Shown here one piece after another: positions 218-17,238 of a DNA stretch of 64,000 bases. Location of the stretch: positions 94,392-158,391 of the IMG/VR virus record IMGVR_UViG_3300032053_000003; one strand, 5' to 3'. The position numbers and the translations under genes are program-made. The DNA is from a virus. Under the pieces are notes generated by a model. The model worked only from the letters and a program-made list of their open reading frames with translations. It was not told the DNA's origin and searched no databases. The stretch's first letter is position 1; every line of letters starts with the position of its first letter.

Positions 218-226
218 GAGTTGGTC

Positions 227-412: not shown

Positions 413-424
413 GGAGATTGATCT

Positions 425-754
425 ATGTCCAAAGCAGAAACTTTACTCCAGTCACTCTCTGAGGCTGAAGAAGAAAAGGGAAAGACCTTATATTTTTCTA
501 CACAAAACGGTAACAGATTCGTGATATCCCTTGAACCTGGTTCACTGGGGCATGTCATGAAGTACAATGAGCATACCTTCCCTCTTCCACATACCTCATG
601 GGTAGTCACAGGTTTCTCTAAAAACTCACAGAAGAACAGTCCTGATTTCAAAGTCACTCCTGATCTTACCAGGGAAGCTATTAAAGGTAAGTATGTGTGG
701 GACCTGGATCATGGTACTACAAGAAGGTGGGGAGATAAAATAAGCAAGTACTGA
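425..754 (+). CDS. hypothetical protein, MSKA-tag family (MSKAETLLQSLSE…)
   Basis: ORF track entry. A GAGGAG SD lies upstream. Tag motif present. Confidence 0.65.
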   Translation: MSKAETLLQSLSEAEEEKGKTLYFSTQNGNRFVISLEPGSLGHVMKYNEHTFPLPHTSWVVTGFSKNSQKNSPDFKVTPDLTREAIKGKYVWDLDHGTTRRWGDKISKY

Positions 755-763
755 GGGGTAGAA

Positions 764-817
764 ATGTCGAAAGCCAAGGAAGTTCTCAAAGCACTTTATG
801 AAACTGATCGGGGATAA
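764..817 (+). pseudogene. truncated duplicate of the N-terminus of gene 227 (MSKAKEVLKALYETDRG*)
   Basis: About 90% nucleotide identity over ~40 nt to 230-270. Stop after 17 codons. Confidence 0.45.
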
Positions 818-833
818 ATTCTAGGGGGATGCA

Positions 834-1199
834 ATGAATGTATCTGAATCCAAAGGCTGGGAAGACATTAAGAAGTGGTTAAAGATAAAGACCAAGGATG
901 AGATCGATGATGATGAAGATAACATGTATGACATGAATAACAGTGTGAGCAAAGCAAGGAAGCTCCTTAAGGTTATAGAGGAGGCTCAAACGGGATACTA
1001 TCAACAATTAATAAGTAAGAATCTATCTGATTCAAGTATAGATCCTCGATGGGTAGAGGCTCATTTACGTCTTGATCATGGAACTCTGGATTCTTTATCT
1101 GTTGAAGAGTTTAAGATTGAAATACCTGAAATAATTAAAGTTATTAAAGAAGAAGGTAAACAACAAGCAGAGAAGTTGGCACTTTCTTATGGTTTATAA
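834..1199 (+). CDS. hypothetical acidic protein
   Basis: ORF track entry. GGGGGA SD. No tag motif. Confidence 0.55.
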   Translation: MNVSESKGWEDIKKWLKIKTKDEIDDDEDNMYDMNNSVSKARKLLKVIEEAQTGYYQQLISKNLSDSSIDPRWVEAHLRLDHGTLDSLSVEEFKIEIPEIIKVIKEEGKQQAEKLALSYGL

Positions 1200-1209
1200 G
1201 GAGTGGACA

Positions 1210-1407
1210 ATGAACAGATCTCAACAGATTATCTCATTATCGGAAGAAAGGGGTAAGTTCTCTTACTCTGATGGTAAGGTGCAGGTTAACAAGGGAAGGA
1301 TCGGTTCTCTTGCTCCTCAATATGTCACAAGGGAGTATCTCACTGCTTTAAAAAAAGAGATCCAGAATTGGTTGGAAGAGGTAGACAAGGAGCTTGCCAA
1401 ATCATGA
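1210..1407 (+). CDS. small hypothetical protein, tag variant (MNRSQQIISLSEE…)
   Basis: ATG 1210 follows an AAGGAG SD and the previous stop at 1197-1199. Confidence 0.55.
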   Translation: MNRSQQIISLSEERGKFSYSDGKVQVNKGRIGSLAPQYVTREYLTALKKEIQNWLEEVDKELAKS

Positions 1408-1649
1408 ACAGAGCCCAGCAGATTATCTCATTATCGGAAGCCTCTCAGAAACTTTCTAGTGTAGCTGAGACTATCTCAGGGATCTGGGATAAGGGTCATG
1501 ATAAGAAGCCAAGAATCTTTCGTGTCATGCCTCTCTCGTGGTTCTGGGCAGGTACCATAACCAAAGACCAGCTAGACCAGGATGACGATAATGCTGATGG
1601 TGGAGATGGTGGAGGGGATTCTGGTGGAGATGGAGGAGGTGGAGAGTGA
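1404..1649 (+). CDS. small hypothetical protein, tag variant (MNRAQQIISLSEA…), Gly/Asp-rich C-terminus
   Basis: ATGA overlap with the previous gene. The first 39 nt are nearly identical to 1210-1248. Confidence 0.55.
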   Translation: MNRAQQIISLSEASQKLSSVAETISGIWDKGHDKKPRIFRVMPLSWFWAGTITKDQLDQDDDNADGGDGGGDSGGDGGGGE

Positions 1650-1665
1650 GTAAGGCAAAAACTTT

Positions 1666-1923
1666 TTGAGTATACTGGATGAGGGTAAAGAGAAAATCCG
1701 ATGGGAGCCTAATACAGTAGGTGGAATCAAAGGAATTTATCTATCTCGTTCAGATGTTGAATTTAGGATAGACGTTAATCCCCATAAGAGTAAGTACTCT
1801 TGGATGATAGGCAGAGCTTCCAGTGATCGGTTTATTGAGCAAGGGGAAGCAGGTACAGAGGAAGATGCTAAGAAACAGGCAATCAAGTTTCTTAAGGGTA
1901 TGGAGGCAAGGGGGATAGCATGA
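1666..1923 (+). CDS. hypothetical protein. Probably a frameshifted MSKA-tag gene (GTG1646 MSKAKTF* joins TTG1666 SILDEG… across a T5 run)
   Basis: Frame 2 at 1646-1669 encodes MSKAKTF*. Frame 1 continues from 1666 as SILDEGKEK… One extra T would restore MSKAKTFLSILDEG. Confidence 0.45.
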   Translation: MSILDEGKEKIRWEPNTVGGIKGIYLSRSDVEFRIDVNPHKSKYSWMIGRASSDRFIEQGEAGTEEDAKKQAIKFLKGMEARGIA

Positions 1924-2249
1924 CCAAGGCAGGTACTCTTCTTTCAATGTTGGAAAGCAATAAGACCATTGCTGATGCCAAGGCAAAGATCATGGAGATC
2001 GAGCATTATTCCAGTACTGACTCCATAGAAATCATAAGTTCTTACATGGGTAGTCGTGTTTTGGATGATGACGAGGAAATTCAAGGCACAGTTTATATAG
2101 TATCTCTTGATTCACATGGTGGTGCAAATGTCTATGTGGATGCTCCAAATAAAGATGATGCTGCTGAAGCTGCTGAAGAATGGTGGTTGGAATTCCATCC
2201 TAAGGAAAAGAGTATAGAAGCTGGTCAGATCAGAGGATTGAAATTGTAA
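1920..2249 (+). CDS. hypothetical protein, MSKA-tag family (MTKAGTLLSMLES…)
   Basis: ATGA overlap with the previous gene. Tag motif present. Confidence 0.65.
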   Translation: MTKAGTLLSMLESNKTIADAKAKIMEIEHYSSTDSIEIISSYMGSRVLDDDEEIQGTVYIVSLDSHGGANVYVDAPNKDDAAEAAEEWWLEFHPKEKSIEAGQIRGLKL

Positions 2250-2263
2250 TAAGGAGAGTAGAT

Positions 2264-2497
2264 ATGTCCAAGGCTAGTAATCTTGTTAAGATACTTGAGG
2301 AATTAGCAAGGACTCCCAGTAATGGAGAAGCTGTGTATGTTGATCACCACAAAAATGCAGGTCAGTATGGTGGCAGTAAGGATGTATATACTGTGAAAGG
2401 TGTGGAGAAGGATGACCTTATTGTTAAACTTGAAGGAGAGGACTCTATTAAACGGTATATTGCTAAATTTGGGTTAAAAATAAAAAATCGTGGTTGA
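2264..2497 (+). CDS. hypothetical protein, MSKA-tag family (MSKASNLVKILEE…)
   Basis: AGGAGAG SD. Tag motif present. Confidence 0.65.
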   Translation: MSKASNLVKILEELARTPSNGEAVYVDHHKNAGQYGGSKDVYTVKGVEKDDLIVKLEGEDSIKRYIAKFGLKIKNRG

Positions 2498-2524
2498 TAA
2501 AGGAATAGTTTAGGAGATTAGTTG

Positions 2525-2776
2525 ATGAGTAAAGCTAAGGAAGTTCTTAACTTGTTTGAGGATTGGACTCCTATTCCTGAGCCTGAGAAAAAGAAGAAGC
2601 CCAGAAGATCTAAACAGCTTATTAAGGCTGAGAAAGCCCTGAGGTTTGCTCTGAGTGAGCAGGAAAGGTATATGGGATCTGTTTTTGTCAATGCTCATGG
2701 TCAACGTAAGCATGAGGAACGTGTGGAACAAGCTTATGCTGATTATCGTAGAGCAGGTGGGACTCTGGATATCTAA
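2525..2776 (+). CDS. hypothetical basic protein, MSKA-tag family (MSKAKEVLNLFED…)
   Basis: ATG 2525 follows the TTG at 2522. TAGGAG SD. Confidence 0.65.
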   Translation: MSKAKEVLNLFEDWTPIPEPEKKKKPRRSKQLIKAEKALRFALSEQERYMGSVFVNAHGQRKHEERVEQAYADYRRAGGTLDI

Positions 2777-2781
2777 GGGAG

Positions 2782-3426
2782 TTGATTATGAAGAAAGAAT
2801 TGAGTGTCTTTGATAAGCACCAACTTGCCATTGCCTACAAGACAATGAAGATGTCTGATGCAGGTGCTCTCATTATGGGTGGTATGACCAAGGCAGAGGC
2901 CAAGGAGATCATCAAGAAGTTTACTGGCAAAGAGTACAAGGAGTCCAAGGATACCTCTCTTGAGGGTGTGTTCAATATGAATGGTGCAGGGTGGGCAAAA
3001 GTAGATTATGACCCCAAAGGTATAATCTTTACCTTCAAGATAGGCCAAAGGGAGAAGGAGAAGGCTTTCATAAAGGATCTCAAGCAGGATAACTATTCCT
3101 ATCAGTATGTTGATGATGACAGTATCCTTGTGCATTATAGTAAGCATGAGGGCAGGGGAAATGGAATGACTAAAGCCAAACAGCTCATCCAGACCATATC
3201 TGAGACTGTTCCTGAGGCAGAGGAAGGTATCAAGGTATGGGCACAGGAAGGTCCTAACGGCTATACTATCCTTACAGGTAATAATAAGCCAGATCCTGGC
3301 TTTGGTAAGTATTACAGCCAGTTCCTTGGTATTGTGAAGGATAAGGAAGATTTCAATAAGAAGACCAACAATGGATGGGACATTGGCAGGGTCCCCCTCA
3401 AGGTCCTCAGAAAGAGATTTGAGTAA
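2782..3426 (+). CDS. hypothetical protein with an internal in-frame tag (…GMTKAKQLIQTISE at codon 129, ATG 3166 with its own SD)
   Basis: ORF track entry. A nested in-frame ATG at 3166 is preceded by AGGGGA. Confidence 0.55.
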   Translation: MIMKKELSVFDKHQLAIAYKTMKMSDAGALIMGGMTKAEAKEIIKKFTGKEYKESKDTSLEGVFNMNGAGWAKVDYDPKGIIFTFKIGQREKEKAFIKDLKQDNYSYQYVDDDSILVHYSKHEGRGNGMTKAKQLIQTISETVPEAEEGIKVWAQEGPNGYTILTGNNKPDPGFGKYYSQFLGIVKDKEDFNKKTNNGWDIGRVPLKVLRKRFE

Positions 3427-3436
3427 GGAGCAGCCG

Positions 3437-3709
3437 ATGTCGAAAGCTAAAAAGTTCTTGAAAGAGTCCAATGTTAAAGGTGTCCTTCAGGATTATACAG
3501 ATCAGCTTACCAAGATAGGGAAGAACCTGGGCCAAGAGTATAGGCAGGTAGCTGCTGAGATAGAGAAGGTAGTAAGTGAATTGGGTAAGCAGGATAACTA
3601 TGATCAGGTATCCAAGATCACCTCTGCCCTCTCTGATGCCCAGTCTGATTTAGCTTTCTATGTTAAAAGTCTGAGAACAGTGATATTGGATCTTGAGAAC
3701 GAAGATTAG
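3437..3709 (+). CDS. hypothetical protein, MSKA-tag family (MSKAKKFLKESN…)
   Basis: ATG 3437 follows a TAAGGAG SD. The track's 3371 start is upstream of it. Confidence 0.65.
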   Translation: MSKAKKFLKESNVKGVLQDYTDQLTKIGKNLGQEYRQVAAEIEKVVSELGKQDNYDQVSKITSALSDAQSDLAFYVKSLRTVILDLENED

Positions 3710-3732
3710 AATGACTAAAAACAAGAGGAAAT

Positions 3733-4038
3733 ATGCCAGCTACCCGAAATATTGAAACAAGGATTCTCTACATAGCTCAGAGGTGTCATAGCATCTCTGC
3801 TAAACTAGTTAACAAGGAACAGATTATCATAAGTCTTCAGATGCTCAATCTGGTGTGGTCTACTTCAAATCCTGAGTATCAGCAAAGGTATTTGAGGATG
3901 GCTCTGGTTGCCTATGGTAGGGCTATGAAAGAGAACGCTCTTCCTGTTGATAGAGACTTAAGAGGTGTTTATAAAGAGTCCTTCTCTCCAGAAGAGTTGA
4001 AAGAGATGGAGAGAGATATGCTCAATGAGGATGTGTGA
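3733..4038 (+). CDS. hypothetical protein
   Basis: ORF track entry. SD present. Confidence 0.5.
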   Translation: MPATRNIETRILYIAQRCHSISAKLVNKEQIIISLQMLNLVWSTSNPEYQQRYLRMALVAYGRAMKENALPVDRDLRGVYKESFSPEELKEMERDMLNEDV

Positions 4039-4041
4039 ATC

Positions 4042-4365
4042 ATGGACTGGAAACAGACATTGGATAATCTTAATACTCTCTTTGTAGCTGCTACTGATGC
4101 TTACACTTCTGGAGATAAGAAGGGGTATAAGAAAAAGAGTAAAGAGTATGATGATGTATTATCTGAAGTGCCTACTGATGTACTGAAGCAGATTGTAATC
4201 AGTAAAGAAAGAGGATCTGCTAATTCCATGGTAGCACAGGAATTAGCAGATAGGTATAATGTACTTCCTCATGAGAAAAAATTGAGATTTTCTTATAGTG
4301 ATTGGATTAAATTAGTACCTAATGAATCCAAAGCTAAGAAACTTATAAGTAGTCTTTTGGATTAG
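4042..4365 (+). CDS. hypothetical protein
   Basis: ORF track entry. Tight spacing with neighbours. Confidence 0.5.
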   Translation: MDWKQTLDNLNTLFVAATDAYTSGDKKGYKKKSKEYDDVLSEVPTDVLKQIVISKERGSANSMVAQELADRYNVLPHEKKLRFSYSDWIKLVPNESKAKKLISSLLD

Positions 4366-4372
4366 GGTTAAG

Positions 4373-4666
4373 ATGGGTCTGTCTATTATTTATTCTGAGC
4401 TGCAGGAACTACTTACAAATTACCCCTCAGATATAAGGGAGAGCATAGTATCATATCTTGAGGAGATCTCTTCAGACCTCAATGACACTCGTAACATCTT
4501 AGGTATGTTTGAACATGATGCTACCTCTGATGGTATTGCAGACAAACTAGCTGAAGAGTTGATCCAGGATATGACCAAAAGGATCAAGGTTTTCAATAAA
4601 GATATGCTGGAGATGATCATTAAGACTGAGTTAGATTACCTAACTAAAATAAAGAAGGGGAGATAA
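4373..4666 (+). CDS. hypothetical acidic protein
   Basis: ORF track entry. Confidence 0.5.
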   Translation: MGLSIIYSELQELLTNYPSDIRESIVSYLEEISSDLNDTRNILGMFEHDATSDGIADKLAEELIQDMTKRIKVFNKDMLEMIIKTELDYLTKIKKGR

Positions 4667-4668
4667 CC

Positions 4669-5067
4669 ATGGGAAAGGCTGCTAATTTGATAAGTATGCT
4701 GGAGGCTTCACTAGATCCTGAAGTTCAGAAGATTGTTGGTCAGATCGATGGTGCCCTCCAGAAGATAGTGGACTCTACCCTTCGGAGCAGTGATCTCGGT
4801 AACTCAGGGGACCACCTCTACAAGATCGTTACAGCAAAAGATGGGAATGACTATGCTCTGTTTAGTGTTCCTGTGATTACTCAGGGTGGTGACAGAGCTG
4901 AGAACTCCAATGCCAACTTCAAAAAGATAATTGATCATGTTTGGGGCTTGAGGGACCAAGGTTACTATATCTCACAGCCAGTGGGCAAGAGTGGTAGTGG
5001 GTGGGAGAACAAGAACAGTGGGACTGCTGGTGTTGTAATGCAGTTCTATTTTGGCAAGAACAAGTAG
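4669..5067 (+). CDS. hypothetical protein, MSKA-tag family (MGKAANLISMLEA…)
   Basis: AAGGGGAG SD. Tag motif present. Confidence 0.65.
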   Translation: MGKAANLISMLEASLDPEVQKIVGQIDGALQKIVDSTLRSSDLGNSGDHLYKIVTAKDGNDYALFSVPVITQGGDRAENSNANFKKIIDHVWGLRDQGYYISQPVGKSGSGWENKNSGTAGVVMQFYFGKNK

Positions 5068-5076
5068 GAGGGTTCA

Positions 5077-5223
5077 ATGCTGTTAGCCATTTTAGTGTGT
5101 CAATCATGTGGCACAAAATTCCAAGCTGATCTGGATTGTGGTGATACAGCCTGTCCTCAGTGTGGAAGTAGCAGTACACAACCTACCACTGATACCTCTG
5201 GTATTAAAAAGATAATCAAATAG
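5077..5223 (+). CDS. small zinc-ribbon protein (48 aa, CxxC…CxxC)
   Basis: MLLAILVCQSCGTKFQADLDCGDTACPQCGSS… Below the 60-aa track cutoff. GGAGGG SD. Confidence 0.45.
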   Translation: MLLAILVCQSCGTKFQADLDCGDTACPQCGSSSTQPTTDTSGIKKIIK

Positions 5224-5232
5224 GAGCCCAAT

Positions 5233-5769
5233 ATGAAAAGCAAAGCTGCTGTCTTTCTAGATATCATGGAGAAGGAATATGACCCTAAGGATTATGTTCC
5301 TAAAGCCATGCAGTGGTGGAATAAGCTGGCCCCTGAGCAGCAGAAGGACTATCTTGCAAAATTAGCAAAGACTGCACCAGATAAAGTAGCTCAGGTTTAT
5401 CAGGATCTCTATGGTACATCTCCTGCAGCAGATTCACACTCTGAAGATATGTCCAAGACGAAGAAGGTTCTTGCTGCTGCTGTTCTTGCTGCTTTTATGA
5501 TGGTAGGTTCAGGTGCTGCCCATGCTATTGATTATCATGTAGTGGGTAAGGATAGTAAGGGTAATCCTATCTATGCAACAGGTGGTGCCAGTAGTGGCAC
5601 TACTCAAGATAAAGTAGTTAAGACTGTAGATGCAGCTGGAAAACTTTTAAATGTTGGTGCAGCAACTATAGGTCAGTTTGGCAATCAGCATTCTCAGCAG
5701 AGAGCTTATAAAGCTTCCAATGATGTTAATTTTGTTGTGAGTGTTCTGAAGGCTTTGACTGGTAACTAA
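5233..5769 (+). CDS. hypothetical protein with internal hydrophobic helix, MSKA-tag-like (MKSKAAVFLDIMEKE…)
   Basis: ORF track entry. TAGGAG SD. TM-like segment VLAAAVLAAFMMVGSGAAHA. Confidence 0.6.
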   Translation: MKSKAAVFLDIMEKEYDPKDYVPKAMQWWNKLAPEQQKDYLAKLAKTAPDKVAQVYQDLYGTSPAADSHSEDMSKTKKVLAAAVLAAFMMVGSGAAHAIDYHVVGKDSKGNPIYATGGASSGTTQDKVVKTVDAAGKLLNVGAATIGQFGNQHSQQRAYKASNDVNFVVSVLKALTGN

Positions 5770-5771
5770 AA

Positions 5772-6134
5772 GTGGTCAGTAAAGCTGGTCATTTTTTAAG
5801 TATTACTGAAGATGTCATGAAAACTTATTATCATGTCACAACTGAAAAGGCTTCACGTAAGATCTTAGTTAATGGATTATCTCCACGTAAGGGATCAAGA
5901 AGTCGTGATTTTGGTGAGGAAGACCCAGCTATATTTCTTTTCACTTCTATAGAAGAGGCTGAAGATGCTGTAATGAACTGGTTAGGTGATAAGTACAATG
6001 AGAGCACACCTCTTGTATTATTGGAGATAAAGGTTCCTTCAGATTTTGAAATCACAAAAGTAAATGGTCAGTTTGAGGCTGTAAGTATAGTACCTATACC
6101 AGCAAAGTACATCAGATTATTGAAAGAGTTATAA
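5772..6134 (+). CDS. hypothetical protein, tag-like N-terminus ((M)VSKAGHFLSITED…)
   Basis: GTG start at 5772. Tag-like N-terminus. Confidence 0.55.
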   Translation: MVSKAGHFLSITEDVMKTYYHVTTEKASRKILVNGLSPRKGSRSRDFGEEDPAIFLFTSIEEAEDAVMNWLGDKYNESTPLVLLEIKVPSDFEITKVNGQFEAVSIVPIPAKYIRLLKEL

Positions 6135-6143
6135 AGGAGATAA

Positions 6144-6419
6144 ATGGAGCTTCGTAAAGTAATTGGGGCTTTTGTTGATAAGATGGAGGTAGTCCCTATG
6201 TCCAAAGCAGGACAGTTTATTGAAGATGTTAAGGATGAGTTTGGATTTTTAGGGGCTGTATCTGATAAGTCCTCTCCTGTACAATATCGTATTCATGCTG
6301 AAATGAAGGATGGTAATGTAGGCATTACTCCATGGTATACAGAGGCAAGCCTGGATGCTCTTAAGAAGGACATAATTAAACAAGGTCACAAAATTATTAA
6401 GATAGAAAAAAAGGTATAG
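6144..6419 (+). CDS. hypothetical protein. A tag start (MSKAGQFIEDVKDE) lies at an internal ATG 6198, which has its own SD
   Basis: Both 6144 (AGGAG SD) and 6198 (GGAGG SD) are plausible starts. Confidence 0.55.
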   Translation: MELRKVIGAFVDKMEVVPMSKAGQFIEDVKDEFGFLGAVSDKSSPVQYRIHAEMKDGNVGITPWYTEASLDALKKDIIKQGHKIIKIEKKV

Positions 6420-6429
6420 GAGACATCCC

Positions 6430-7653
6430 ATGTCAAATAAGCCCAAAGAAATAACAGCTATCTATGATCTCGGTGATGAATCTAAGTATGCTGACAGGTA
6501 TACTGTTTTATTCTCCAAGAAGGATTTTCCTGATGTGAGTAATTCCCAATATGTCCAGTCTCTTGGTATGTCAGGTAGTCCTGATCATCCTCAAGGTGTT
6601 TCCCAGTGGGGAGAGGCTCTTCCTGGATCTCATCTTGGAAAGAAGATCAAATGGGACAGCCTTCCTGACAATGTCAAGAAACATATTATCAAGAGATTGA
6701 GTAATGATAATGAGTCTCATGTCAAACTGAGAAGGTCATGTAACAGAGCCAAAGATTTATCCAATCTGTCTGAAGATCTTAACTTCAAAAAAGGTAGTAA
6801 GATCCATATCAGAGCACATTCAAGTAAGAAGGGTAAGGGTCTCTCCTATGAGGCTATGAATGTTACTGCTGATGAGGATGGCAGGTCAGGAGGGTGGGAT
6901 GTCTATGATGGGACCGATGAATCTGGAAACGAGATAAGTTTCTATGGATTCTCTGTTGATAAAAAGGGATGGAGTAAGTCAGAGAATTTGAGAAGATCGT
7001 TTAACAGATCCAGGGACCTCACTGCTCTGGCAGAAGAGGATGCTTCATCCTACTTTGTACTTGCTGATCCCAAGGAAGCTGATAAGATTGTGAGATCAGG
7101 GAAAGATGATAAGGCCCTCTTTAAAGGTACTGCTGAAGATGCAGCTAAGTATGCTAAGGATAAGTTGTCTGGTAAGGATGCTGTGATGCTTCAACGTGAT
7201 AGTCAGGGTAAGTACAAGTATGCTGTAGGTAGTGATGATAAGAAAGCAGGATCAGCAGCAATTACACACGAAAGAAAAACTGGAGGTAAAAGTATGAGCA
7301 GAGCAAAGGATATTACAAAGTTGGTAGAGAGTGCTTCAGTGAATGAGATGTATGCTCTTGGGGCTGATCATATAGTGAATTGGCTCAAGAAGACAGCATA
7401 CGAAAGGTTTGATGTTGATCCTTCGGCAATCTCCGTGGTCCCTTGGCCTCAGGATGGGTCAGACTTCAACATCACTTCCCCTCTTTCCAAGGAGCAGTAT
7501 GAGGAGTTGTCTGAAAAGATCACTAGGACATATCCTTTGTATGTGGTGGAGTTTGTGGACGGTGGAGTTATGAAGTTCTTTTCCTCACGTACTGTGGGAA
7601 CGGACCCTGCCAATACCGAAGAGATATATCCTCGTGACAATATGCTTCCGTAA
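6430..7653 (+). CDS. hypothetical 407-aa protein with three internal tag-like motifs (NRAKDLSNLSED, NRSRDLTALAEED, MSRAKDITKLVES). Polyprotein-like.
   Basis: ORF track entry. Internal repeats of the tag motif. Confidence 0.6.
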   Translation: MSNKPKEITAIYDLGDESKYADRYTVLFSKKDFPDVSNSQYVQSLGMSGSPDHPQGVSQWGEALPGSHLGKKIKWDSLPDNVKKHIIKRLSNDNESHVKLRRSCNRAKDLSNLSEDLNFKKGSKIHIRAHSSKKGKGLSYEAMNVTADEDGRSGGWDVYDGTDESGNEISFYGFSVDKKGWSKSENLRRSFNRSRDLTALAEEDASSYFVLADPKEADKIVRSGKDDKALFKGTAEDAAKYAKDKLSGKDAVMLQRDSQGKYKYAVGSDDKKAGSAAITHERKTGGKSMSRAKDITKLVESASVNEMYALGADHIVNWLKKTAYERFDVDPSAISVVPWPQDGSDFNITSPLSKEQYEELSEKITRTYPLYVVEFVDGGVMKFFSSRTVGTDPANTEEIYPRDNMLP

Positions 7654-7661
7654 TAGTTAGG

Positions 7662-7692
7662 AATTAGGGTTGGTTTACTGCTGACCCTAATT
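7662..7692 (+). terminator. putative intrinsic terminator
   Basis: AATTAGGGT, a 13-nt loop, then ACCCTAATT, followed by a T-rich tract. Confidence 0.45.
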
Positions 7693-7761
7693 CTTTCCTA
7701 TCTCATTTTACCTTATGCATCTTGAGCTGTATCTTGAGATTGATTACGGAAAGGAGTCGTT

Positions 7762-8322
7762 ATGGGAGTGATGGTGGATTGGCAAGCTACAGGTACCATT
7801 GTTACAGCTGTGGTAGCCTTGGTTGCATCTATTTGGCAGTATTTCGTAGTTATTTCAGGTGTAAGGAAAGATATTACTGATTTGGCTACTGGTGTAAGGA
7901 AAGATATTACTGATTTGGCTACTAACCTAAGAGTAGAGGCTGTTACTGCAAATAAAAGTGTGATGGAAACTCTGGCTATTCAAGGGAGTAAGATAACCAG
8001 GATAGAGACTCAAACTGAGTTATTTTGGAATGCTGTGAGTACTTCTATATCTAATCTGATTAAGCAACCGATTCATTTTAAAAAAGATCAGTTGATGGAT
8101 AAACTCATTCCTGTAAATATGCCTCATTTGCCAGAAAGTACTATTGAAGAGTTGGTGGAGTTGAGACTTATTCTCAAAGACGAGCTAGTAATGTTACAAG
8201 AAGTGAAAGACCCAAAAGCTTTAGCTTATGCCCTTGCTATAGCTTACATAGATCAAACTCTTTATGATAAGGGGCTTATAAAAGGAGAATGTCATGAGCC
8301 TGTTGTCTATGAGCCTGTCTAA
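7762..8322 (+). CDS. hypothetical membrane protein with a perfect 11-aa tandem repeat (GVRKDITDLAT x2)
   Basis: N-terminal TM helix. A 33-bp perfect tandem duplication at 7858-7923. Confidence 0.55.
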   Translation: MGVMVDWQATGTIVTAVVALVASIWQYFVVISGVRKDITDLATGVRKDITDLATNLRVEAVTANKSVMETLAIQGSKITRIETQTELFWNAVSTSISNLIKQPIHFKKDQLMDKLIPVNMPHLPESTIEELVELRLILKDELVMLQEVKDPKALAYALAIAYIDQTLYDKGLIKGECHEPVVYEPV

Positions 8323-9352
8323 TTCGTTATTACTAATATTTACTCTCCTTCTACAGGTTGTTATTGGTTTATATGGTTGGAAAATTTTGAAGATAGCCGA
8401 CTATATTGATATTTGGAGGAAGGGTTGGGCCTTTTTCATTATAGCAGCTGTAACGACTCTTCTGAGAAGAGTATGCGAGTTAGTGGGGTTAGGTGTTAAT
8501 AACTATACTCATATTATGTTATCTGTTGTCTCTACTGTATTTTTATTATTGTTTATCTATTGCATAGCTAAGGTATTTGTTAATATATCAAAGTTGCATG
8601 ATGAGAGTATATTTACCACTGTTCTTAAAGAGATTCCTATAGGTATTCTTATTCATGATTTGGACTCTTCCGTTGTGTACTCTAACCCCATGGCTTCAAA
8701 GATTCTTGGTACTACAGAATCTTTATCTGGACTCTTTACCAGTAAACAGTGGCATTTTTTAAGAGAGGACTCAACACCTCTTCCTGAAGATGAATATCCA
8801 GTAAATAGGATTATTAAGTCAGGTAAAGCATTTTCTAATATGGTCATTGGTATCAATCATCGTAAGAGTACACTGTGGGTGCTGTGCAATGCTTATTTTA
8901 TAAATGAAAAGAACCAGGTTGTTACTGTATTTGCTGATGTAAGCTACCTTAAAAGAATGGAGGGAGAGTTAGGGCTGTCTGAAGAAAAGTACAGGAGAGC
9001 TTTTATGTCCAGCCACGATGGAATTATCATCAGTAGGATGTCAGATGGTCTGGTTAACTCCATTAATAAAACTTTTACTATCCTTACTGGTTATACAGAA
9101 GAGGAGATCAAGGGCAAGACTACTATTGATCTTGGTATCTGGAAAAACATTGAGGATCGTAATAAGGTTGTTTCTGACCTTCAGAGTGGTAATGGGGTTA
9201 TGGACTTTGATTGCTATTTTGTCCGTAAGGATGGGAAAGATTTACATGGGCTAGTATCTGCTTCAACATTAATTCTTAATCAAGAACTTTATATCCTTAC
9301 ATCTGTAAGAATTGTGCAAGAGAGACTTAATAATCAAAGAATAGGGGATTAA
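8294..9352 (+). CDS. membrane-anchored PAS-domain protein (about 3 TM helices, two PAS-like domains, no output domain)
   Basis: Hydrophobic N-terminus. PAS-like blocks (…DGIIISRMSDGLVNSINKTFTILTGYTEEEIKGKT…DFDCYFVRKDGKDLHG…). Confidence 0.55.
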   Translation: MSLLSMSLSNSLLLIFTLLLQVVIGLYGWKILKIADYIDIWRKGWAFFIIAAVTTLLRRVCELVGLGVNNYTHIMLSVVSTVFLLLFIYCIAKVFVNISKLHDESIFTTVLKEIPIGILIHDLDSSVVYSNPMASKILGTTESLSGLFTSKQWHFLREDSTPLPEDEYPVNRIIKSGKAFSNMVIGINHRKSTLWVLCNAYFINEKNQVVTVFADVSYLKRMEGELGLSEEKYRRAFMSSHDGIIISRMSDGLVNSINKTFTILTGYTEEEIKGKTTIDLGIWKNIEDRNKVVSDLQSGNGVMDFDCYFVRKDGKDLHGLVSASTLILNQELYILTSVRIVQERLNNQRIGD

Positions 9353-9375
9353 TAAAATAAGAATGGAGGTACATT

Positions 9376-9675
9376 ATGAAGATATCATTTTGGAAAGCAT
9401 TAGGGATGGCAGGGCTTCTTGCTGATGAGCTTACTAAGGCAGGAGCAGATGGCAAGGTATCTTTCGATGAGGCTCTGGTAATAGCCAAGGATCTCTCTGT
9501 ATCAGCAGGATTACCCTTTGATGATAAGGGGACTGCTTTGGTGGTTACTACAGTTACTGATCTGATCAATGCAGCTGCTGATGGCAAGATCACGATTGCT
9601 GAGATGATAGCAATCACTGAGAAGCTGTGCAATGCACTGGGGATCGAGTTTGATAAGACCGGCTTCAATGTATAA
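9376..9675 (+). CDS. hypothetical protein with an internal duplication
   Basis: ORF track entry. GGAGG SD. Confidence 0.5.
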   Translation: MKISFWKALGMAGLLADELTKAGADGKVSFDEALVIAKDLSVSAGLPFDDKGTALVVTTVTDLINAAADGKITIAEMIAITEKLCNALGIEFDKTGFNV

Positions 9676-9695
9676 GGATTAGGTGGAGGGAACCC

Positions 9696-9974
9696 ATGAG
9701 CAAAGCAGGAGAGGTTTTAAAAATTATTAATGAAGTAAAAAAAGATCCTGAGTTGCAGTCATCTGATCCTAAAAATGCTAACAGGGCTCTTAAGGCTTTT
9801 CATAAATTGAATCCTACAGTTGATAAAGGGTTTAAAGCTAAGGTTGTATTTGAGCATGGTCATCTTTGGATAGTACATCCTAATGGTGGACAGTGGGATG
9901 TTGTGGATGCTGATGGTCCTGGTACTATAGATGGATTCAGTTTTGAACAGGTAAGTGAACCTGAAGATTTTTAA
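9696..9974 (+). CDS. hypothetical protein, MSKA-tag family (MSKAGEVLKIINE…)
   Basis: The SD and first codons (GGGAACCCATGAGCAAAGCAGGAGA) are duplicated at 9996-10020. Confidence 0.65.
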   Translation: MSKAGEVLKIINEVKKDPELQSSDPKNANRALKAFHKLNPTVDKGFKAKVVFEHGHLWIVHPNGGQWDVVDADGPGTIDGFSFEQVSEPEDF

Positions 9975-10001
9975 GTGGATAAGTAAGGTAAGGGGGAACC
10001 C

Positions 10002-10316
10002 ATGAGCAAAGCAGGAGATTTTATAAAAGTACACGAGACCATATTGTCAGATATTGGTGATCGTTTTGAGTCAACAGTAAAAGCTCTTAGAGATGCTGGG
10101 TTTCTTACAGCAACCTACAGCAAGGGAGATGCTTTTACTCCAGCACAGATCACCCTTGATAATGGTATTGTCATCTCCATTGACAATGATAGTGGTAATC
10201 TGGAGATCCAGCCTGATCCAAGATATATTGCATCCCTCCATAAGAAACAGAGGTTCTTTACTCCTGGGGATCTTATCCAGGCTTTGTCAGGGATGACAAA
10301 GGTAGGTTATCCATGA
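10002..10316 (+). CDS. hypothetical protein, MSKA-tag family (MSKAGDFIKVHE…)
   Basis: Same start segment as 9696. Confidence 0.65.
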   Translation: MSKAGDFIKVHETILSDIGDRFESTVKALRDAGFLTATYSKGDAFTPAQITLDNGIVISIDNDSGNLEIQPDPRYIASLHKKQRFFTPGDLIQALSGMTKVGYP

Positions 10317-10597
10317 CAAAAGCTCAGATACTTCTGGAGAAGATCAAGGAGCCTGTCCCTAAGTTTAAGAAGGGGGATAAGGTAAAGCTTCGTAGTGATG
10401 TCCTGAAGAGGCATTCTAAGAGTGTACCAGCTCATGCTGGATACTCTAAGGAGCAGTTTTCCTGGAGAGCAACCCTTGATAACCTTGAAGGTCAGGTTGG
10501 CACTATTGAGAGGACCTTCCCTAACTCAAAGCATGTCAATGTCCAGTTCCCCAGTACATTGATTGGCATTGATTCTACTGAGCTTGAAGGAGCCTGA
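10313..10597 (+). CDS. hypothetical protein, MSKA-tag family (MTKAQILLEKIKE…)
   Basis: ATGA overlap with the previous gene. Confidence 0.65.
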   Translation: MTKAQILLEKIKEPVPKFKKGDKVKLRSDVLKRHSKSVPAHAGYSKEQFSWRATLDNLEGQVGTIERTFPNSKHVNVQFPSTLIGIDSTELEGA

Positions 10598-10598
10598 T

Positions 10599-10868
10599 AT
10601 GTCAAAAGCAAAGAACCTACTCGATTTATTGCCAAAGGATAAGGGTAAAGGGAGTGTCCTGGATGCTCTAAATGCAGGGAAAGATCCCTACACTTTTAGT
10701 GGTTATCGGATAGCTGAGAATCCAAATGGGGATGAGCTGTGGGCTTTCTCTGCACATTCGGACAAGGTAGCAGTGAAGCACTCCAATGGTAAGTGGGATA
10801 CTGATCTTTCAGTTTTCCCACATATTGTACAGGGGAGACCTCGTAAAGCTCCAACACCTTTAAAGTGA
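10599..10868 (+). CDS. hypothetical protein, MSKA-tag family (MSKAKNLLDLLPK…)
   Basis: ATG 10599 follows the previous stop at 10595-10597. GAAGGAG SD. Confidence 0.65.
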   Translation: MSKAKNLLDLLPKDKGKGSVLDALNAGKDPYTFSGYRIAENPNGDELWAFSAHSDKVAVKHSNGKWDTDLSVFPHIVQGRPRKAPTPLK

Positions 10869-10877
10869 GGAGATCTT

Positions 10878-11021
10878 ATGAATGACGATGAAGATATCTA
10901 TGGATGTCCTTTTTGTGGGAAAGAACTTGGGGACTCTCTACCAGACAAATGCCCTGCCTGTAAGATGCCTATCCATCGTGAAGATGTTGAGGTATATAAG
11001 GATGAGTCTTTAAGGAGATAG
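10878..11021 (+). CDS. small zinc-ribbon protein (47 aa, CPFCG…CPACK)
   Basis: GAGGAG SD. Below the track cutoff. Confidence 0.45.
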   Translation: MNDDEDIYGCPFCGKELGDSLPDKCPACKMPIHREDVEVYKDESLRR

Positions 11022-11023
11022 GT

Positions 11024-11353
11024 ATGACAAAGGCTAAACAGGTTCTTAATATGTTGGAGGGTACTTTTGATATAGGCAATGACTCCTCCTCACATAACAT
11101 CATTGTCAAGATCAAGGGAGTAGATAAGGACTTCTACAAGGCTCCTTTTGGTAGGCAGATTGATGACCTCAAGAAGGTAAAAGCCTTTACAGGTACTGCA
11201 AAAACTGCTTATGTTGATGCAAAGCATAAGGGGACCTTGGCTGCTGTTAAGCAGTGGATCAAAGCAACGAATCCTTCTGAGTATTATGCAAAATGGAAGA
11301 AGGACTCCAGCAATTACAAGGATGACTCTGTTCAAGTATTCTACATAGATTAG
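11024..11353 (+). CDS. hypothetical protein, MSKA-tag family (MTKAKQVLNMLEG…)
   Basis: AAGGAGATAGGT ATG context. Confidence 0.65.
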   Translation: MTKAKQVLNMLEGTFDIGNDSSSHNIIVKIKGVDKDFYKAPFGRQIDDLKKVKAFTGTAKTAYVDAKHKGTLAAVKQWIKATNPSEYYAKWKKDSSNYKDDSVQVFYID

Positions 11354-11366
11354 AGGTAGGTTATTG

Positions 11367-11630
11367 ATGGCAACTGCTATACCCAGTCTTAAACATTGGC
11401 AGAAACATAATGCAGGTCAGTACACTTTTGAAGATCTAAATGGTTACCACTGGGAAATATCCCCATGGGAATGGGGTTTTAACTTAGCAGTACGAAAATG
11501 TGAGGATAAGAAGAAGTGGATCTGGATAACTCTGGACAGTAAAATAGCAGCTAAAGCTGGAGTATCCTATAATAATCTGTTCAACACTCCAGCTCTTGCA
11601 GCCAAAGCAGCTGCTAAAGTACAGTTATAA
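11367..11630 (+). CDS. hypothetical protein
   Basis: ATG 11367 follows the TTG at 11364. Confidence 0.5.
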   Translation: MATAIPSLKHWQKHNAGQYTFEDLNGYHWEISPWEWGFNLAVRKCEDKKKWIWITLDSKIAAKAGVSYNNLFNTPALAAKAAAKVQL

Positions 11631-11640
11631 GGAGATCACT

Positions 11641-12411
11641 TTGAAAATAGCAGATGAACTGATCCCAATGTTTTTGATAGATGTGATGGAGGATGGGGAC
11701 CCTACTCCATCGGCTCCAGGAGGTACTACCATCTCTCAGAATAACTTAGGGCAGGTGCTGCCTACCTATTTCCCCAAGTTTATCAAGAAACGTAAGAAGC
11801 TCATTGAACCCTACAAAGACTTCAGGAAGTCCCAGGATGCCAAGCAGGGACACCATGGCAGTGAGTACACCTACCATAATGGTATGAGGCAGTGGGTTAA
11901 CTCCACAGCAGGTAAGAAGTTCTACAGAAACCTGAGTACCTTCCTGGCTAATCGTGAGCCTGGTCACATGCTCAATCGGTATGAGTCTTCTGAGTTGGCT
12001 TCACTACTCTCTTCCTATCGTACACATGCTCTTCTTGAGCTGAACTATTACAAACCTTTCTCTGAGGAAGTAGACTTCTTCCTTGCTATTGAAGGTGTGA
12101 TTAAGCTCATTGACAAGTACACTGCCCAGATCCTTGAGAAGGTTTTCAAGTATGATGACTTTGAGATCACCGAAGATCTCTATAGCACTATCTTCAGAAT
12201 CATGGAGCCAGCTGGTGTAGTCCACTCCCTTGCCGTGAAGACAGGGAAGACAGATGCTGAAGTCGAGAAGCTCTGGGACAAAGCCAAGGAAGTGGTCAAG
12301 GATGAGTATAAGGCTGGTGAGGATGAGGATAGGTACTGGGCCTTGGTTACAGGTACTCTGAAGAAGATGCTTGGTATTGAAGAGGATGATGGAGGGAAGG
12401 TCAATGACTAA
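11641..12411 (+). CDS. hypothetical protein (~256 aa). Start uncertain: TTG 11641 after an AAGGAG SD, or ATG 11668
   Basis: The track's 11596 start overlaps the upstream gene. Confidence 0.45.
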   Translation: MKIADELIPMFLIDVMEDGDPTPSAPGGTTISQNNLGQVLPTYFPKFIKKRKKLIEPYKDFRKSQDAKQGHHGSEYTYHNGMRQWVNSTAGKKFYRNLSTFLANREPGHMLNRYESSELASLLSSYRTHALLELNYYKPFSEEVDFFLAIEGVIKLIDKYTAQILEKVFKYDDFEITEDLYSTIFRIMEPAGVVHSLAVKTGKTDAEVEKLWDKAKEVVKDEYKAGEDEDRYWALVTGTLKKMLGIEEDDGGKVND

Positions 12412-12610
12412 GGCAGGTAAACTTCTCAGTCTTTTTGAATACAAAATGGAACCATCCTACAAAGGTCTTAAACTTGTAAGGAAGGGGTTGGTTCTTCAGG
12501 CACTCAATGATGATGGTTTCACAAAGTATGAAGTTGCCATTGGATCTGGTGGTTATACCAAGGAAGATGTGGATAAGCTGAAACAGAAAATTGATGCAAA
12601 AGCCCAGTAG
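12404..12610 (+). CDS. hypothetical protein, MSKA-tag family (MTKAGKLLSLFEY…)
   Basis: GGAGGG SD. 8-nt overlap with the previous gene. Confidence 0.65.
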   Translation: MTKAGKLLSLFEYKMEPSYKGLKLVRKGLVLQALNDDGFTKYEVAIGSGGYTKEDVDKLKQKIDAKAQ

Positions 12611-12626
12611 TTTCAAGGGGGATCTG

Positions 12627-12827
12627 ATGTCAAAAGCCAAAAAGTTTCTTGGGGAGTACAAGAAAGAGAATAGTGAGTTTCCTGAGCTGGATAAGGTGTC
12701 TTTGGAGTTAGCCCATATGGTATCCAAAGAGATTAATAAGAGAGTAAAGTCTGTTGAATCTAAGATGCCTTACAAAGCTCAGTATGTTCTGGAAGAGCTT
12801 ATCAAGCATCTGGAAGAGATGGTGTAG
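12627..12827 (+). CDS. hypothetical protein, MSKA-tag family (MSKAKKFLGEYKKE…)
   Basis: AAGGGGGA SD. Confidence 0.65.
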   Translation: MSKAKKFLGEYKKENSEFPELDKVSLELAHMVSKEINKRVKSVESKMPYKAQYVLEELIKHLEEMV

Positions 12828-12829
12828 CT

Positions 12830-13141
12830 ATGGGTAAAGCTAAACAGCTTCTTCATTTGTTGGAATATAATGACGATGAGTGGGATGATGGCTCTGAGGA
12901 AGAGAGACCATCAGATGATGACATAATCCTTCATAACTCTGGTACTCTTGGTAGCAGGACCTCAGTATCTGCTAGTGGGAGACATATTGGTGAGTTCAAA
13001 TCCGATGAAGAGGCTGAAAAGGCCATTGTTGATTGGATCAATAGGAACAAGTTCCATCCTGGTATCTGGTATGTTGATGACCATGGTGGTGTGAGTCCTT
13101 ACTCATTAGATCCAAAGAACCAGAAGAAGATCAAGATATGA
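12830..13141 (+). CDS. hypothetical acidic protein, MSKA-tag family (MGKAKQLLHLLEY…)
   Basis: ORF track entry. Confidence 0.65.
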   Translation: MGKAKQLLHLLEYNDDEWDDGSEEERPSDDDIILHNSGTLGSRTSVSASGRHIGEFKSDEEAEKAIVDWINRNKFHPGIWYVDDHGGVSPYSLDPKNQKKIKI

Positions 13142-13488
13142 ACAAATCACAGTCGTTACTATCTAAACTCAATGAATCTGATGGATATACTGTGGCTACT
13201 GCTCTTGCTGAATTGAGAAATGCAGTAAGGCACGATGCTATAAAGTCCTCCAATCCAAATGCTGCTGGAATAGCTCTTGGTGCTTTTGATGATTATGAGA
13301 AGGAATTTCCTAAGAAAGACAGCAGTGATCCTGAGGATCTTAAGAAGGTTCTCAAGAAGCTTCCTGGTTATTTTACTACAAAGTACAGGGATTGGGAGAT
13401 GCCTGAATACCCTTCCAAGTTCTCTTTCTCAGGTATCAATAAGGTTGTAAGAAAGATAGCAAAGCAGATTGGTGTGCAGGTAGATTAG
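13138..13488 (+). CDS. hypothetical protein, tag variant (MNKSQSLLSKLNE…)
   Basis: ATGA overlap with the previous gene. Confidence 0.55.
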   Translation: MNKSQSLLSKLNESDGYTVATALAELRNAVRHDAIKSSNPNAAGIALGAFDDYEKEFPKKDSSDPEDLKKVLKKLPGYFTTKYRDWEMPEYPSKFSFSGINKVVRKIAKQIGVQVD

Positions 13489-13499
13489 ATAACAAATCC

Positions 13500-13509
13500 G
13501 TTTCAGTCC
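13500..13509 (+). promoter_or_regulatory. GTTTCAGTCC motif upstream of the capsid operon
   Basis: The same decamer-like motif recurs at 26771-26806 and heads the 40229-40660 array. Confidence 0.3.
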
Positions 13510-13609
13510 CCTAAGTTTCGGTTTTCTTAATAGATCAGGTATACATTAATCAGTCTTATCTCGGAACAATTTTTAACCTCGTTTTTATCAATAAACACAG
13601 GAGTAATCT

Positions 13610-15178
13610 ATGAACAGGACTAAGCTCGTGGATGCCTATGAAGTCAGGGAGTCCTCCTACTCTATTACTTCAGCACCTGTAACAAATGCAGGTGGGTTCC
13701 ATATTCTGGGCAGACTCACTGGGCCTCATTTCGTTCCTAATGGAACGTCTAGGAATCAGAGGTACTACTCCAAGTCTCTCTGGGAAAGAGTAATGACTGA
13801 TGAGAAAACCAAGCAAAAGCTGGAGAGAAGGCTGATGTTTGGTACCATTGGTCATGCTGATAACTTCGATGTGGAGAAGTTTGCCAGGGAAGGTCTGCTC
13901 TCTCATGTCACAGTCAATATGTGGATAGATGAGGGTACAGGTCTTGGAATGGCTGAGGATTGGATACTCGACACTCCAGCAGGTAAGAACCTGTTTGCCA
14001 TGTGTAAAGCTGGATGTCGTTTTTATACATCGTCCAGGGCATCTGGTTCCTTCAAGAATGAGAAGAAGGATGGTTTGCCAGTAGTGGATGAGTCAACATA
14101 TGATTTAGGTGGATGGGACATGGTTGTTGATCCTGGTTTTCTTGAAGCTGATCCATCACTTGTGGAGAGTCTAAAGAGGAACGGTATTGACTTCGGAGTC
14201 CAAACCATATCGAAACCCAAGAAAAATGGAGGTAATATTATGTCAACAGAGTTGCTTGAAAAGCTTACCAAAGAGAAGATCGCAGTTGAAAACGGACTTC
14301 GTGAGGCTCTTGTGGAGCTTAATGCATATAAGAAGATCGGAACCCCTGAAAGAATCAGAGAGGCCCTGAGAGCTTATATGGCATTTGGTTCCCCTGCCGA
14401 GATCACGAAGGCTTTTGATATTGCCGAAGCATCTATCAAGAAGCTTCAGGGCAGTGTCAAGAAGTATGAAGGACTCGGTTCCATTCCCGACATCGAAAAG
14501 GCTCTCCAGATTGCTGAGACCATGTTGAACAAGTACAAGGCACTCGGTACCTCTGAAGATATTGAAGAGGCTTTGGACAGAGCCACAGTCGTGTTTGAAG
14601 AGTACAAGGTACTTGGTACACCGAAAGAGATTGATGAAGCCCTTGATAAGGCTACATCGATGGCTCAGGTCTCCAAGAAGGCCAAGAACGAGATCATGGC
14701 AAAACGTCTTGCCAAGGCTTACAAGGCTCCGTACAAGACTGCCTATGCCCTGGTGGAAAAGCTTGGTGCCAAGGAAGCAGAGAAGATGCTCAAGTCTCTC
14801 CGTGAAGAGGATGAGTCAGGTTACAGGCTCGGTATTGAGTGGCCTGGTAACCCTGCTGATGACAAGCTCATGAAGAACTACGATGACGAGGGTGAAGTCA
14901 TTCTCGGTGACACTGTGGGTCCTGAGGGTTCAATCGACCTGGATAAGGATTCCACTCCCGATGAGGAAGCCAGGGAAGATGACCTCGACACTGAGGAGCC
15001 TGGTGAGGGAACAGCCAAGTCAGGTGGTGAGCTGAAGGATGACCCTGAAGACACCGATGATGACGAAGATCAGAGGAAGCAGGAAGCTCTCCGTAGAAGG
15101 AATCGTAAGATTCAGGAGAGCAAAGGCAAAGGTTACACACCCCTGTCTATCTTTGAGCAGTTGATTTCCAAGAGGTAG
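13610..15178 (+). CDS. prohead protease / scaffolding fusion protein (HK97-like protease N-domain, repetitive coiled-coil C-domain)
   Basis: N-domain with …RRLMFGTIGHAD… resembling the protease His motif. C-terminal ~22-aa repeats (…LGT.E.I.EAL..A…). Sits immediately upstream of the MCP gene. Confidence 0.5.
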   Translation: MNRTKLVDAYEVRESSYSITSAPVTNAGGFHILGRLTGPHFVPNGTSRNQRYYSKSLWERVMTDEKTKQKLERRLMFGTIGHADNFDVEKFAREGLLSHVTVNMWIDEGTGLGMAEDWILDTPAGKNLFAMCKAGCRFYTSSRASGSFKNEKKDGLPVVDESTYDLGGWDMVVDPGFLEADPSLVESLKRNGIDFGVQTISKPKKNGGNIMSTELLEKLTKEKIAVENGLREALVELNAYKKIGTPERIREALRAYMAFGSPAEITKAFDIAEASIKKLQGSVKKYEGLGSIPDIEKALQIAETMLNKYKALGTSEDIEEALDRATVVFEEYKVLGTPKEIDEALDKATSMAQVSKKAKNEIMAKRLAKAYKAPYKTAYALVEKLGAKEAEKMLKSLREEDESGYRLGIEWPGNPADDKLMKNYDDEGEVILGDTVGPEGSIDLDKDSTPDEEAREDDLDTEEPGEGTAKSGGELKDDPEDTDDDEDQRKQEALRRRNRKIQESKGKGYTPLSIFEQLISKR

Positions 15179-15284
15179 TCTCATACCTCTTTACAAATAG
15201 TTCCTCAGGTTGAGTTAATACTTCCATGCACTTCATGGGGTAGTTCCTAAACCTACCAATCCCAAAAATTATGGAGGTATTCCC

Positions 15285-17235: not shown

Positions 17236-17238
17236 AAT

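Follow-up and report, generated by a model that had tools for sequence, protein, structure and literature searches.

In bacteriophage T4, a 10-residue capsid-targeting sequence (MKTYQEFIAE↓A, ending in I-A-E) suffices by itself to load foreign proteins into the capsid and is then removed by the protease gp21 (PMC9026906, PMC3012670). The enzyme cuts after (L/I)-x-E, and within the targeting peptide residues 4 and 7 matter for targeting whilst residues 8 and 10 matter for processing (PMC9026906, PMC3012670). The jumbo phages phiKZ, 201phi2-1 and SPN3US carry many head-internal proteins, which are cut after Glu by the gp21-related gp175/gp245; some of their inner-body proteins have several candidate sites, and the enzyme also trims itself at the C-terminal end (PMC5694885, PMC9026906). 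Here we describe a family of N-terminal tags in the structural region of an uncultured myovirus, covered by 64,000 nucleotides (nt) of the IMG/VR record IMGVR_UViG_3300032053_000003 (positions 94,392 to 158,391; this whole stretch is referred to as the window, and coordinates are given in its numbering). Our focus is the open reading frame (ORF) 6430..7653, which encodes 407 amino acids (aa) and contains three internal copies of the tag. We lean towards reading its product as a precursor of four cargo domains furnished with T4-type capsid-targeting and cleavage tags. That the tag corresponds, as an analogue, to the peptide which in T4 directs proteins to the capsid and is cleaved we consider rather probable.

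Approximately 49 genes on the plus strand of the window start with the 12-residue tag M-[ST]-K-[AS]-x-x-[FLV]-[LI]-x-[LIM]-x-E. The tagged genes are small (median 89 aa), and the part of the protein following the tag is mostly basic (median isoelectric point 8.8). Head and tail genes lie in between them on the same strand, and from 221 to 25998 the tagged genes account for 49% of the bases. A [LIMFV]-x-E motif ends at position 9 to 13 in 47 of the 49 N-terminal tags, as against 8.9% of control peptides, and residues A4, F7, L8 and L11 form a hydrophobic stripe consistent with an amphipathic helix. Codon positions 1 and 2 of the tag are informative and position 3 is not, with synonymous codons mixed. 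Thus, selection acts on the tag peptide, and an account at the level of DNA or RNA alone, be it conservation of the translation-initiation region or a signal for recombination, does not fit this codon-position pattern. The tag family extends well beyond the 407-aa ORF, which is only one part of it.

As in the T4 internal proteins (IPI, IPII, IPIII and Alt), a short N-terminal peptide is common to otherwise unrelated, mostly small basic proteins. The likeness extends to the hydrophobic-x-Glu ending of the peptide, to the presence of a gp21-family protease together with a gp23-family capsid protein, and to a cargo set that varies among relatives. Short variants of the tag, such as MSKAKDFIKE, share M1, F7, [IL]8 and E10 with MKTYQEFIAE. 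On a position matrix built from approximately 50 N-terminal tags of other window genes (one of the 50 training starts, at nt 1657, was mis-specified, leaving the ranking given below unaffected), the N-termini of T4 IPII and IPIII score -5 or lower, and only the F7-[IL]8-x-E10 pattern is held in common, with some of the short variants. There are further differences. The usual tag has 12 residues here and 10 in T4; some 49 tagged genes occupy 37 kb here, compared with a handful in T4; and tags also occur here inside ORFs, between cargo domains, an arrangement not described for T4. Loading and removal of the peptide have been shown in T4 and are predicted here. In terms of sequence features, the system shares what defines the T4 internal proteins, with the exception of peptide homology.

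The three internal tags of the 407-aa protein were scored with the same matrix. Among 19,492 interior positions across all window proteins, the copies at junctions 1, 2 and 3 (J1, J2 and J3; Table 1) rank 2nd, 4th and 3rd, respectively, the next background score being 9.8. In 20,000 shuffles of the protein, at least one site at or above 11.8 bits arose in 366 cases, at least two such sites in 5 and three in none. A chance origin of the three internal tags is excluded. Each copy holds an L-x-E, the cleavage motif of T4 gp21-type proteases, and the resulting candidate cleavage sites are L113-S-E115 at J1, L200-A-E202 at J2 and L298-V-E300 at J3. They represent three of only four [LIM]-x-E motifs in the protein, where the motif is not enriched overall (4 observed versus 3.1 expected). 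The tag starts are 87 and 98 aa apart, and the flanking modules measure 103 and 107 aa. A sequence-only reading of this DNA had proposed three internal tag copies at intervals of roughly 90-100 aa, possibly marking protease sites. Copies and spacing proved real, the copies lie at domain boundaries, and the motif is indeed one that a gp21-type enzyme would recognise.

Alignment of 12 homologues (56-83% identity) revealed an L-x-E tag at all three domain boundaries and at every junction. Mean identity between pairs of sequences was higher in the tag than in the adjoining linker, both at J2 (0.61 versus 0.40) and at J3 (0.79 versus 0.47). L200, A201, G285, G286, M289-S-R-A292, V299 and E300 are invariant, and E202 is nearly so. 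From this difference we conclude that the internal tags are under selection and are not dead relics. The contrary proposal, namely that loss of stop codons fused adjacent tagged genes and left the internal tags as functionless linker remnants, could draw on the read-through of an apparent former intergenic ribosome-binding site at J3 and on other decayed tags in the window (a mini ORF at 764, a frameshifted copy at approximately 1646 and a C-terminal copy at 4324). Given the superior conservation of the tags among the 12 homologues, and the retention of a tag at every junction in every architecture, we regard this proposal as very improbable.

A HMMER search against 1.84 billion representative proteins splits the 407-aa query into four blocks: A (residues 3-93), B (116-180), C (192-272) and D (290-396). 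All four are also met with elsewhere, either on their own as small proteins or as parts of larger, unrelated ones. Block A is a widespread small domain, usually found as a standalone protein of approximately 90 aa, and its family of unknown function, phrog_4496, is the sole PHROG match of the 407-aa protein. The idea of an internal repeat was rejected: the modules are not paralogous, blastp between them gave E values of at least 0.2, and their sets of homologues are disjoint. An AlphaFold model calculated from a 12-sequence alignment places folded cores at 117-176, 207-265 and 311-387, separated by low-confidence helical linkers (88-116, 177-206 and 266-310) that correspond to the tags. A Foldseek search of this model against the PDB gave no match with E ≤ 0.001. 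Pfam searches with the protein and its modules produced only sub-threshold matches (F-box at 17 bits, CUB_C, SH3 and PRANC), which were taken as chance. Since the AlphaFold model is weak and Foldseek found no match, we assign no function to modules A-D.

In relatives of 65-80% identity the ORF keeps its syntenic place, ahead of a conserved gene whose product has two PAS domains, and the blocks are combined differently. Compared with the A-B-C-D order of the window ORF, we find A-C-D (P0001), B-C-D (P0004), F-C-D (P0006), tag-F-C-D (P0007), tag-E-F-C-D (P0005), tag-C-G-D (P0009) and tag-C-D (P0011 and P0016), with a tag at each junction in every architecture. In the relative P0002, arranged as tag-B-C-D, block B follows a true N-terminal tag preceded by a ribosome-binding site and an upstream stop codon. 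Module A is untagged in the window, and in P0018 (X-tag-A) the tag MSKAQTVLSMLE stands between an X-module and A. Homologues of A and B outside the clade are untagged; hence the tag is a clade-specific label, put on domains drawn from a wide gene pool.

The putative cleaving enzyme is encoded by ORF 13610..15178 (hereafter ORF 13610), to which the sequence-only reading had already assigned a protease domain. The assignment holds, and the enzyme belongs to the T4 gp21/S77 family: the ORF matches phrog_207 at 9e-20 and T4 gp21 at 8e-6 by BLASTP, and hhalign aligns the two with a probability of 93.7% over 135 columns, T4 His85 and Ser140 falling on H82 and S141. A word-indexed protein search with the protease domain returned two proteins only, and hhalign against T4 gp21 was used instead. 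Directly behind the protease domain lies the motif P-x-L-[VA]-E-S (P-x-L-V-E↓S at residues 182-187 in the window), which is invariant in homologues down to 39% identity and whose L-V-E-S matches that of J3 (K-L-V-E-S). Enzymes of the gp21 family trim their own C-terminus at the position of this L-V-E↓S motif (PMC5694885). The major capsid protein offers a further candidate maturation site, DVYALGKMLE55↓N, within approximately 5 residues of the equivalent of the T4 gp23 cut (FLTE65↓A). The family of the enzyme, the L-V-E↓S at its own domain boundary and the site in the capsid protein would together point to a specificity for L-x-E.

The C-terminal part of ORF 13610 (residues 211-522) is a scaffold-like coiled coil, making the ORF a fusion of protease and scaffold-like regions. 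Ahead of the coiled-coil part stand an internal GGAGGT and an in-frame ATG at nt 14240 (MSTELLEKL...), followed by five repeats of the type LGTPE.I.EAL, each with an I-x-E motif. The enrichment of [LIM]-x-E in the scaffold-like domain is marginal (12 versus 7.4, P = 0.045). This part of the ORF is likely a nested scaffold gene whose product is degraded by the protease.

J3 also has the properties of a gene start (Table 1). The four loci compared (the window, L003, L004 and L005) all have the same GGA GGT codons, although neighbouring codons vary, and the linker G-G-x-x-M-S-R-A stays with D whether C or G precedes it. Domain D is thus probably also made separately, from ATG 7294, as a tagged protein of 119 aa, and part of the apparent polyprotein is probably a nested gene. 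Translation at the junction between C and D seems to run through what was once an intergenic region. Internal starts at J1 and J2 were considered and rejected for the window: the position of the tag methionine is Cys (TGT) at J1 and Phe (TTT) at J2, and the nearest Leu codons (CTG and TTG) are without a convincing ribosome-binding site. Consequently, B and C depend on the long product. In several relatives, J2 has an ATG at the first position of the tag or four codons upstream.

These observations bear on the possibility that the long ORF is an overlapping arrangement of the kind seen in in-frame protease/scaffold gene pairs, with the internal tags mattering only as the N-termini of internally started C-D and D forms and with no proteolysis involved. 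The canonical GGAGGT and ATG of J3, kept in four loci, the ATG codons at J2 of several relatives, the same internal-start design in the protease ORF and the annotated internal initiation in T4 gene 21 would all suit it. We nonetheless think it quite unlikely, because in the window B and C can be produced only within the long protein, yet their tags are conserved, and neither J1 nor J2 has a convincing start. The internal tag of ORF 834..1199 (at GTG 945) similarly lacks a ribosome-binding site.

In the cargo-precursor interpretation, adjacent tag-bearing genes would have been fused into the chain A, B, C, D, each junction retaining the N-terminal tag of the downstream gene and J3 additionally retaining its ribosome-binding site and ATG, now translated as the peptide G-G-K-S-M. 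The tag would act as a short amphipathic N-terminal peptide that docks its protein to the scaffolding core of the prohead, where the prohead protease (ORF 13610) would cut it after hydrophobic-x-Glu. The 407-aa precursor would be loaded into the prohead through its tags, the untagged domain A entering as a passenger only. Cuts after E115, E202 and E300 would yield pieces of about 115, 87, 98 and 107 aa, which would remain in the head and probably be ejected with the DNA into the host. In parallel, domain D would be translated alone from ATG 7294. The free shuffling of the modules between tags in relatives is what release of the modules, each then acting independently, would lead one to expect.

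A different function for the tag was also weighed. It might serve as a docking helix for some other hub protein, or as a signal for localisation or turnover, the 407-aa protein then being an uncut multi-domain protein that displays three tag helices. Conservation at the peptide level is compatible with such a role, as are the hydrophobic stripe, which suits an amphipathic helix, and the helices that the model predicts at the tags; the missing homology to the T4 capsid-targeting sequence and the unprecedented number of some 49 tagged genes as head cargo would also be accommodated. Left unexplained, however, are the hydrophobic-x-Glu ending of 47 of 49 tags, the invariant L-V-E-S at the boundary of the protease domain, and the interleaving of tagged genes with head genes near a gp21-type protease and a gp23-type capsid protein. 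Free module shuffling, moreover, is easier to tolerate if the modules separate after synthesis. For these reasons we consider a role of this kind unlikely.

Several points weigh against the cargo-precursor interpretation. A cut at an internal site would leave the tag attached to the C-terminal end of the module before it, unlike the N-terminal tags, which would be discarded. The tag has no detectable homology to the T4 capsid-targeting sequence (its score on the tag matrix is negative), and the T4 sequence has been demonstrated to work at the N-terminus only, so that function at an internal position is an assumption. To our knowledge, approximately 49 cargo genes lie far above the head load of any characterised phage. 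The Pfam Peptidase_S77 score of ORF 13610, 20.8 bits, is under the curated cut-off of 27, and the AlphaFold model of the 407-aa protein has a mean predicted local distance difference test (pLDDT) score of 51.5. The capsid-protein site is ambiguous: I-P-E66 is conserved as well, and in place of K-M-L-E the cultured relative TM30 has Q-L-E. Finally, the clade is uncultured, and packaging and cleavage are predictions from its genes.

A broader formulation, which we put forward only tentatively, treats the tag as a portable cassette, used both N-terminally and internally, that would load the attached proteins (untagged passengers included), mark the cut and provide a point of in-frame recombination. 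The coding cassette of approximately 36 nt before every module would then be the site at which relatives gain, lose and re-order domains.

Comparison with other known systems places the locus nearest to T4. The sequence-only reading had likened the 407-aa protein to the inner-body proteins of jumbo phages. This likeness was not sustained: neither tblastn against 50,697 phage records nor a PHROG search detected similarity to phiKZ-type inner-body proteins, and the P3 residue here is Leu, Ile or Met (Leu at all three internal tags), as in T4, in place of the S/A/G-x-E or A-x-E of those phages. Their propeptides often exceed 100 residues and are without a common short tag, and the cuts remove propeptides; they do not separate unrelated cargo domains. 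In-frame nested head genes provide a second parallel. As in T4 gene 21, the starts at nt 7294 and 14240 combine an internal ribosome-binding site with an ATG, giving a second product that would share its C-terminus with the first; lambda C/Nu3 and similar protease-scaffold pairs are further in-frame nested head genes. The nested product predicted at 7294 differs in being a tagged cargo domain, not an isoform of scaffold or protease. Two functional analogies, neither involving homology, can be added. Viral polyproteins likewise consist of one ORF with several independent domains parted by protease sites. Encapsulin cargo-loading peptides are short and portable and direct cargo into an HK97-fold shell, where they stay uncleaved. 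We know of no polyproteins for cargo in the heads of tailed phages. In the literature searched, neither a chain of unrelated cargo domains tagged at each of its joints nor such a number of tagged genes has a counterpart. The earlier description of the protein as polyprotein-like stands in part: domain boundaries, the logic of the motif and the shuffled modules speak for it, but the modules are unrelated and not repeated, and J3 is also a gene start.

The window has a G+C content of approximately 41% and carries essentially all of its genes on the plus strand; the 407-aa ORF is preceded by a good ribosome-binding site, AGGAGA. Three metagenome contigs, independent of one another, encode the identical protein, ruling out an assembly artefact. 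One of these contigs belongs to the 0.2-1 Mb class and a close relative of the protein lies on a contig of 246,837 bp; the virus is therefore a jumbo phage. By capsid protein, the nearest cultured phages are Rhizobium phages of the Kleczkowskaviridae (32% identity), which have the same layout of protease-scaffold and capsid genes, but without the tags. Neither tblastn with the 407-aa protein nor megablast with 25 kb matched any of the 50,697 phage records. An exact-pattern scan of IMG/VR for the tag (ATG-AGY-AAR-GCN-AAR-GAY-TTY-YT) returned ten isolated single matches only and no multi-tag locus.

Table 1 Positions of the principal features of the window (aa, residues of the encoded protein; RBS, ribosome-binding site)
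Feature	aa	nt	Strand	Remarks
Span of the approximately 49 tag-starting genes		221..36973	+	
407-aa ORF		6430..7653	+	four putative cargo domains and three internal tag copies; found on 3 contigs
Module A	3-93	6436..6708	+	untagged itself; phrog_4496 at 3.7e-8; hundreds of matches to aa 3-93
J1 tag, CNRAKDLSNLSE	104-115	6739..6774	+	C104-NRAKDLSNLS-E115; 16.0 bits
Module B	116-180	6775..6969	+	beta-rich; elsewhere as standalone proteins of 63-90 aa and inside larger proteins
J2 tag, FNRSRDLTALAE	191-202	7000..7035	+	F191-NRSRDLTALA-E202; 11.8 bits
Module C	203-272	7036..7245	+	alpha/beta; tag-C in P0023, tag-C-tag-D in P0011 and P0016
GGAGGT RBS	285-286	7282..7287	+	translated as G285-G286; 7 nt before in-frame ATG 7294
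J3 tag, MSRAKDITKLVE	289-300	7294..7329	+	M289-SRAKDITKLV-E300; 15.5 bits
Module D	301-407	7330..7650	+	most conserved module, 0.87 pairwise identity; standalone in P0017 (110 aa)
Head maturation protease, T4 gp21/S77 family	~36-187	13610..15178	+	H82, S141; anchor gene
gp23-like major capsid protein		15285..16709	+	Pfam Gp23 at 7e-14; anchor gene
Tail sheath		26885..28510	+	third of the three anchor genes

Internal tags are also seen in other ORFs of the window: at ATG 3166 in ORF 2782..3426, whose upstream module recurs in P0018, joined via a tag to module A, and at ATG 22026 in ORF 21792..22229, with AGGAGA upstream. The best match to the tag away from an N-terminus (17.9 bits, 4324..4362) is located at the end of ORF 4042..4365; here ESKAKKLISSLLD forms the extreme C-terminus of a 107-aa product, followed by a stop codon and, 7 nt later, by the next gene. 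We take this copy for a relic or, alternatively, for an instance of C-terminal tag use. Positions 764..814 hold a tag-only mini ORF, MSKAKEVLKALYETDRG followed by a stop, which is a decayed copy of the start of gene 227. At approximately 1646..1923, a 1-nt frameshift within an A5/T5 run separates the tag VSKAKTF from the ORF to which it belongs (LSILDEG...); this could reflect a pseudogene, a sequencing error or slippage. The adjacent genes 1210..1407 and 1404..1649 both start with the variant tag MNR[SA]QQIISLSE, and the same N-R-[AS] variant occurs at junctions 1 and 2 of the 407-aa ORF.

Among the baseplate genes, 35873..36580 encodes a tagged protein of 235 aa with a SprT-like zinc-metalloprotease domain (Pfam 7.9e-10), and the tagged gene 36599..36973 comes after it. 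Two untagged mini-proteins of approximately 47 aa with paired CxxC motifs (zinc-ribbon-like) are encoded between tagged genes, at 5077..5223 and 10878..11021; in the relative P0005 a similar zinc-ribbon module is fused behind a tag within the multi-module ORF. The PAS protein (8294..9352 in the window, 11622..12722 in L003 and 11649..12755 in L005), whose two PAS domains are preceded by transmembrane segments at the N-terminus, lies directly downstream of the multi-module ORF and is kept in all relatives, a sensor-type protein being unusual for a phage structural region. A distant relative, L019 (contig SRR11615193_5291, 140,765 bp; protease 47% identical), has near its protease and capsid genes a set of small genes (3616, 8004, 8271, 9689 and 11242) with a different common N-terminus: MAVIKVNGMKNE, MALIKVREMKNE, MTMKIKVNEE, MAMKIRVRES and MAIKPHFRKNEE. 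The pattern points to tags that differ from clade to clade but are alike in design.

Should the tags prove to be capsid-targeting and cleavage signals, this clade would apply the T4 principle of an address peptide and a protease cut on a scale far larger than in any studied phage: about half of a 26-kb structural stretch would encode head cargo, and several cargo domains would be chained into one precursor. The route by which cargo is recruited would become visible, namely addition of a tag, fusion and shuffling. The tag would also supply a compact sequence rule predicting the host-injected proteins of uncultured jumbo phages, which are likely to be anti-defence or takeover factors, and the locus would be a natural model for delivering several proteins to a phage capsid by means of a single construct. 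Were the portable-cassette formulation to hold as well, the tags would constitute a natural, evolvable multi-cargo delivery system, with approximately 50 injected proteins per 64 kb.

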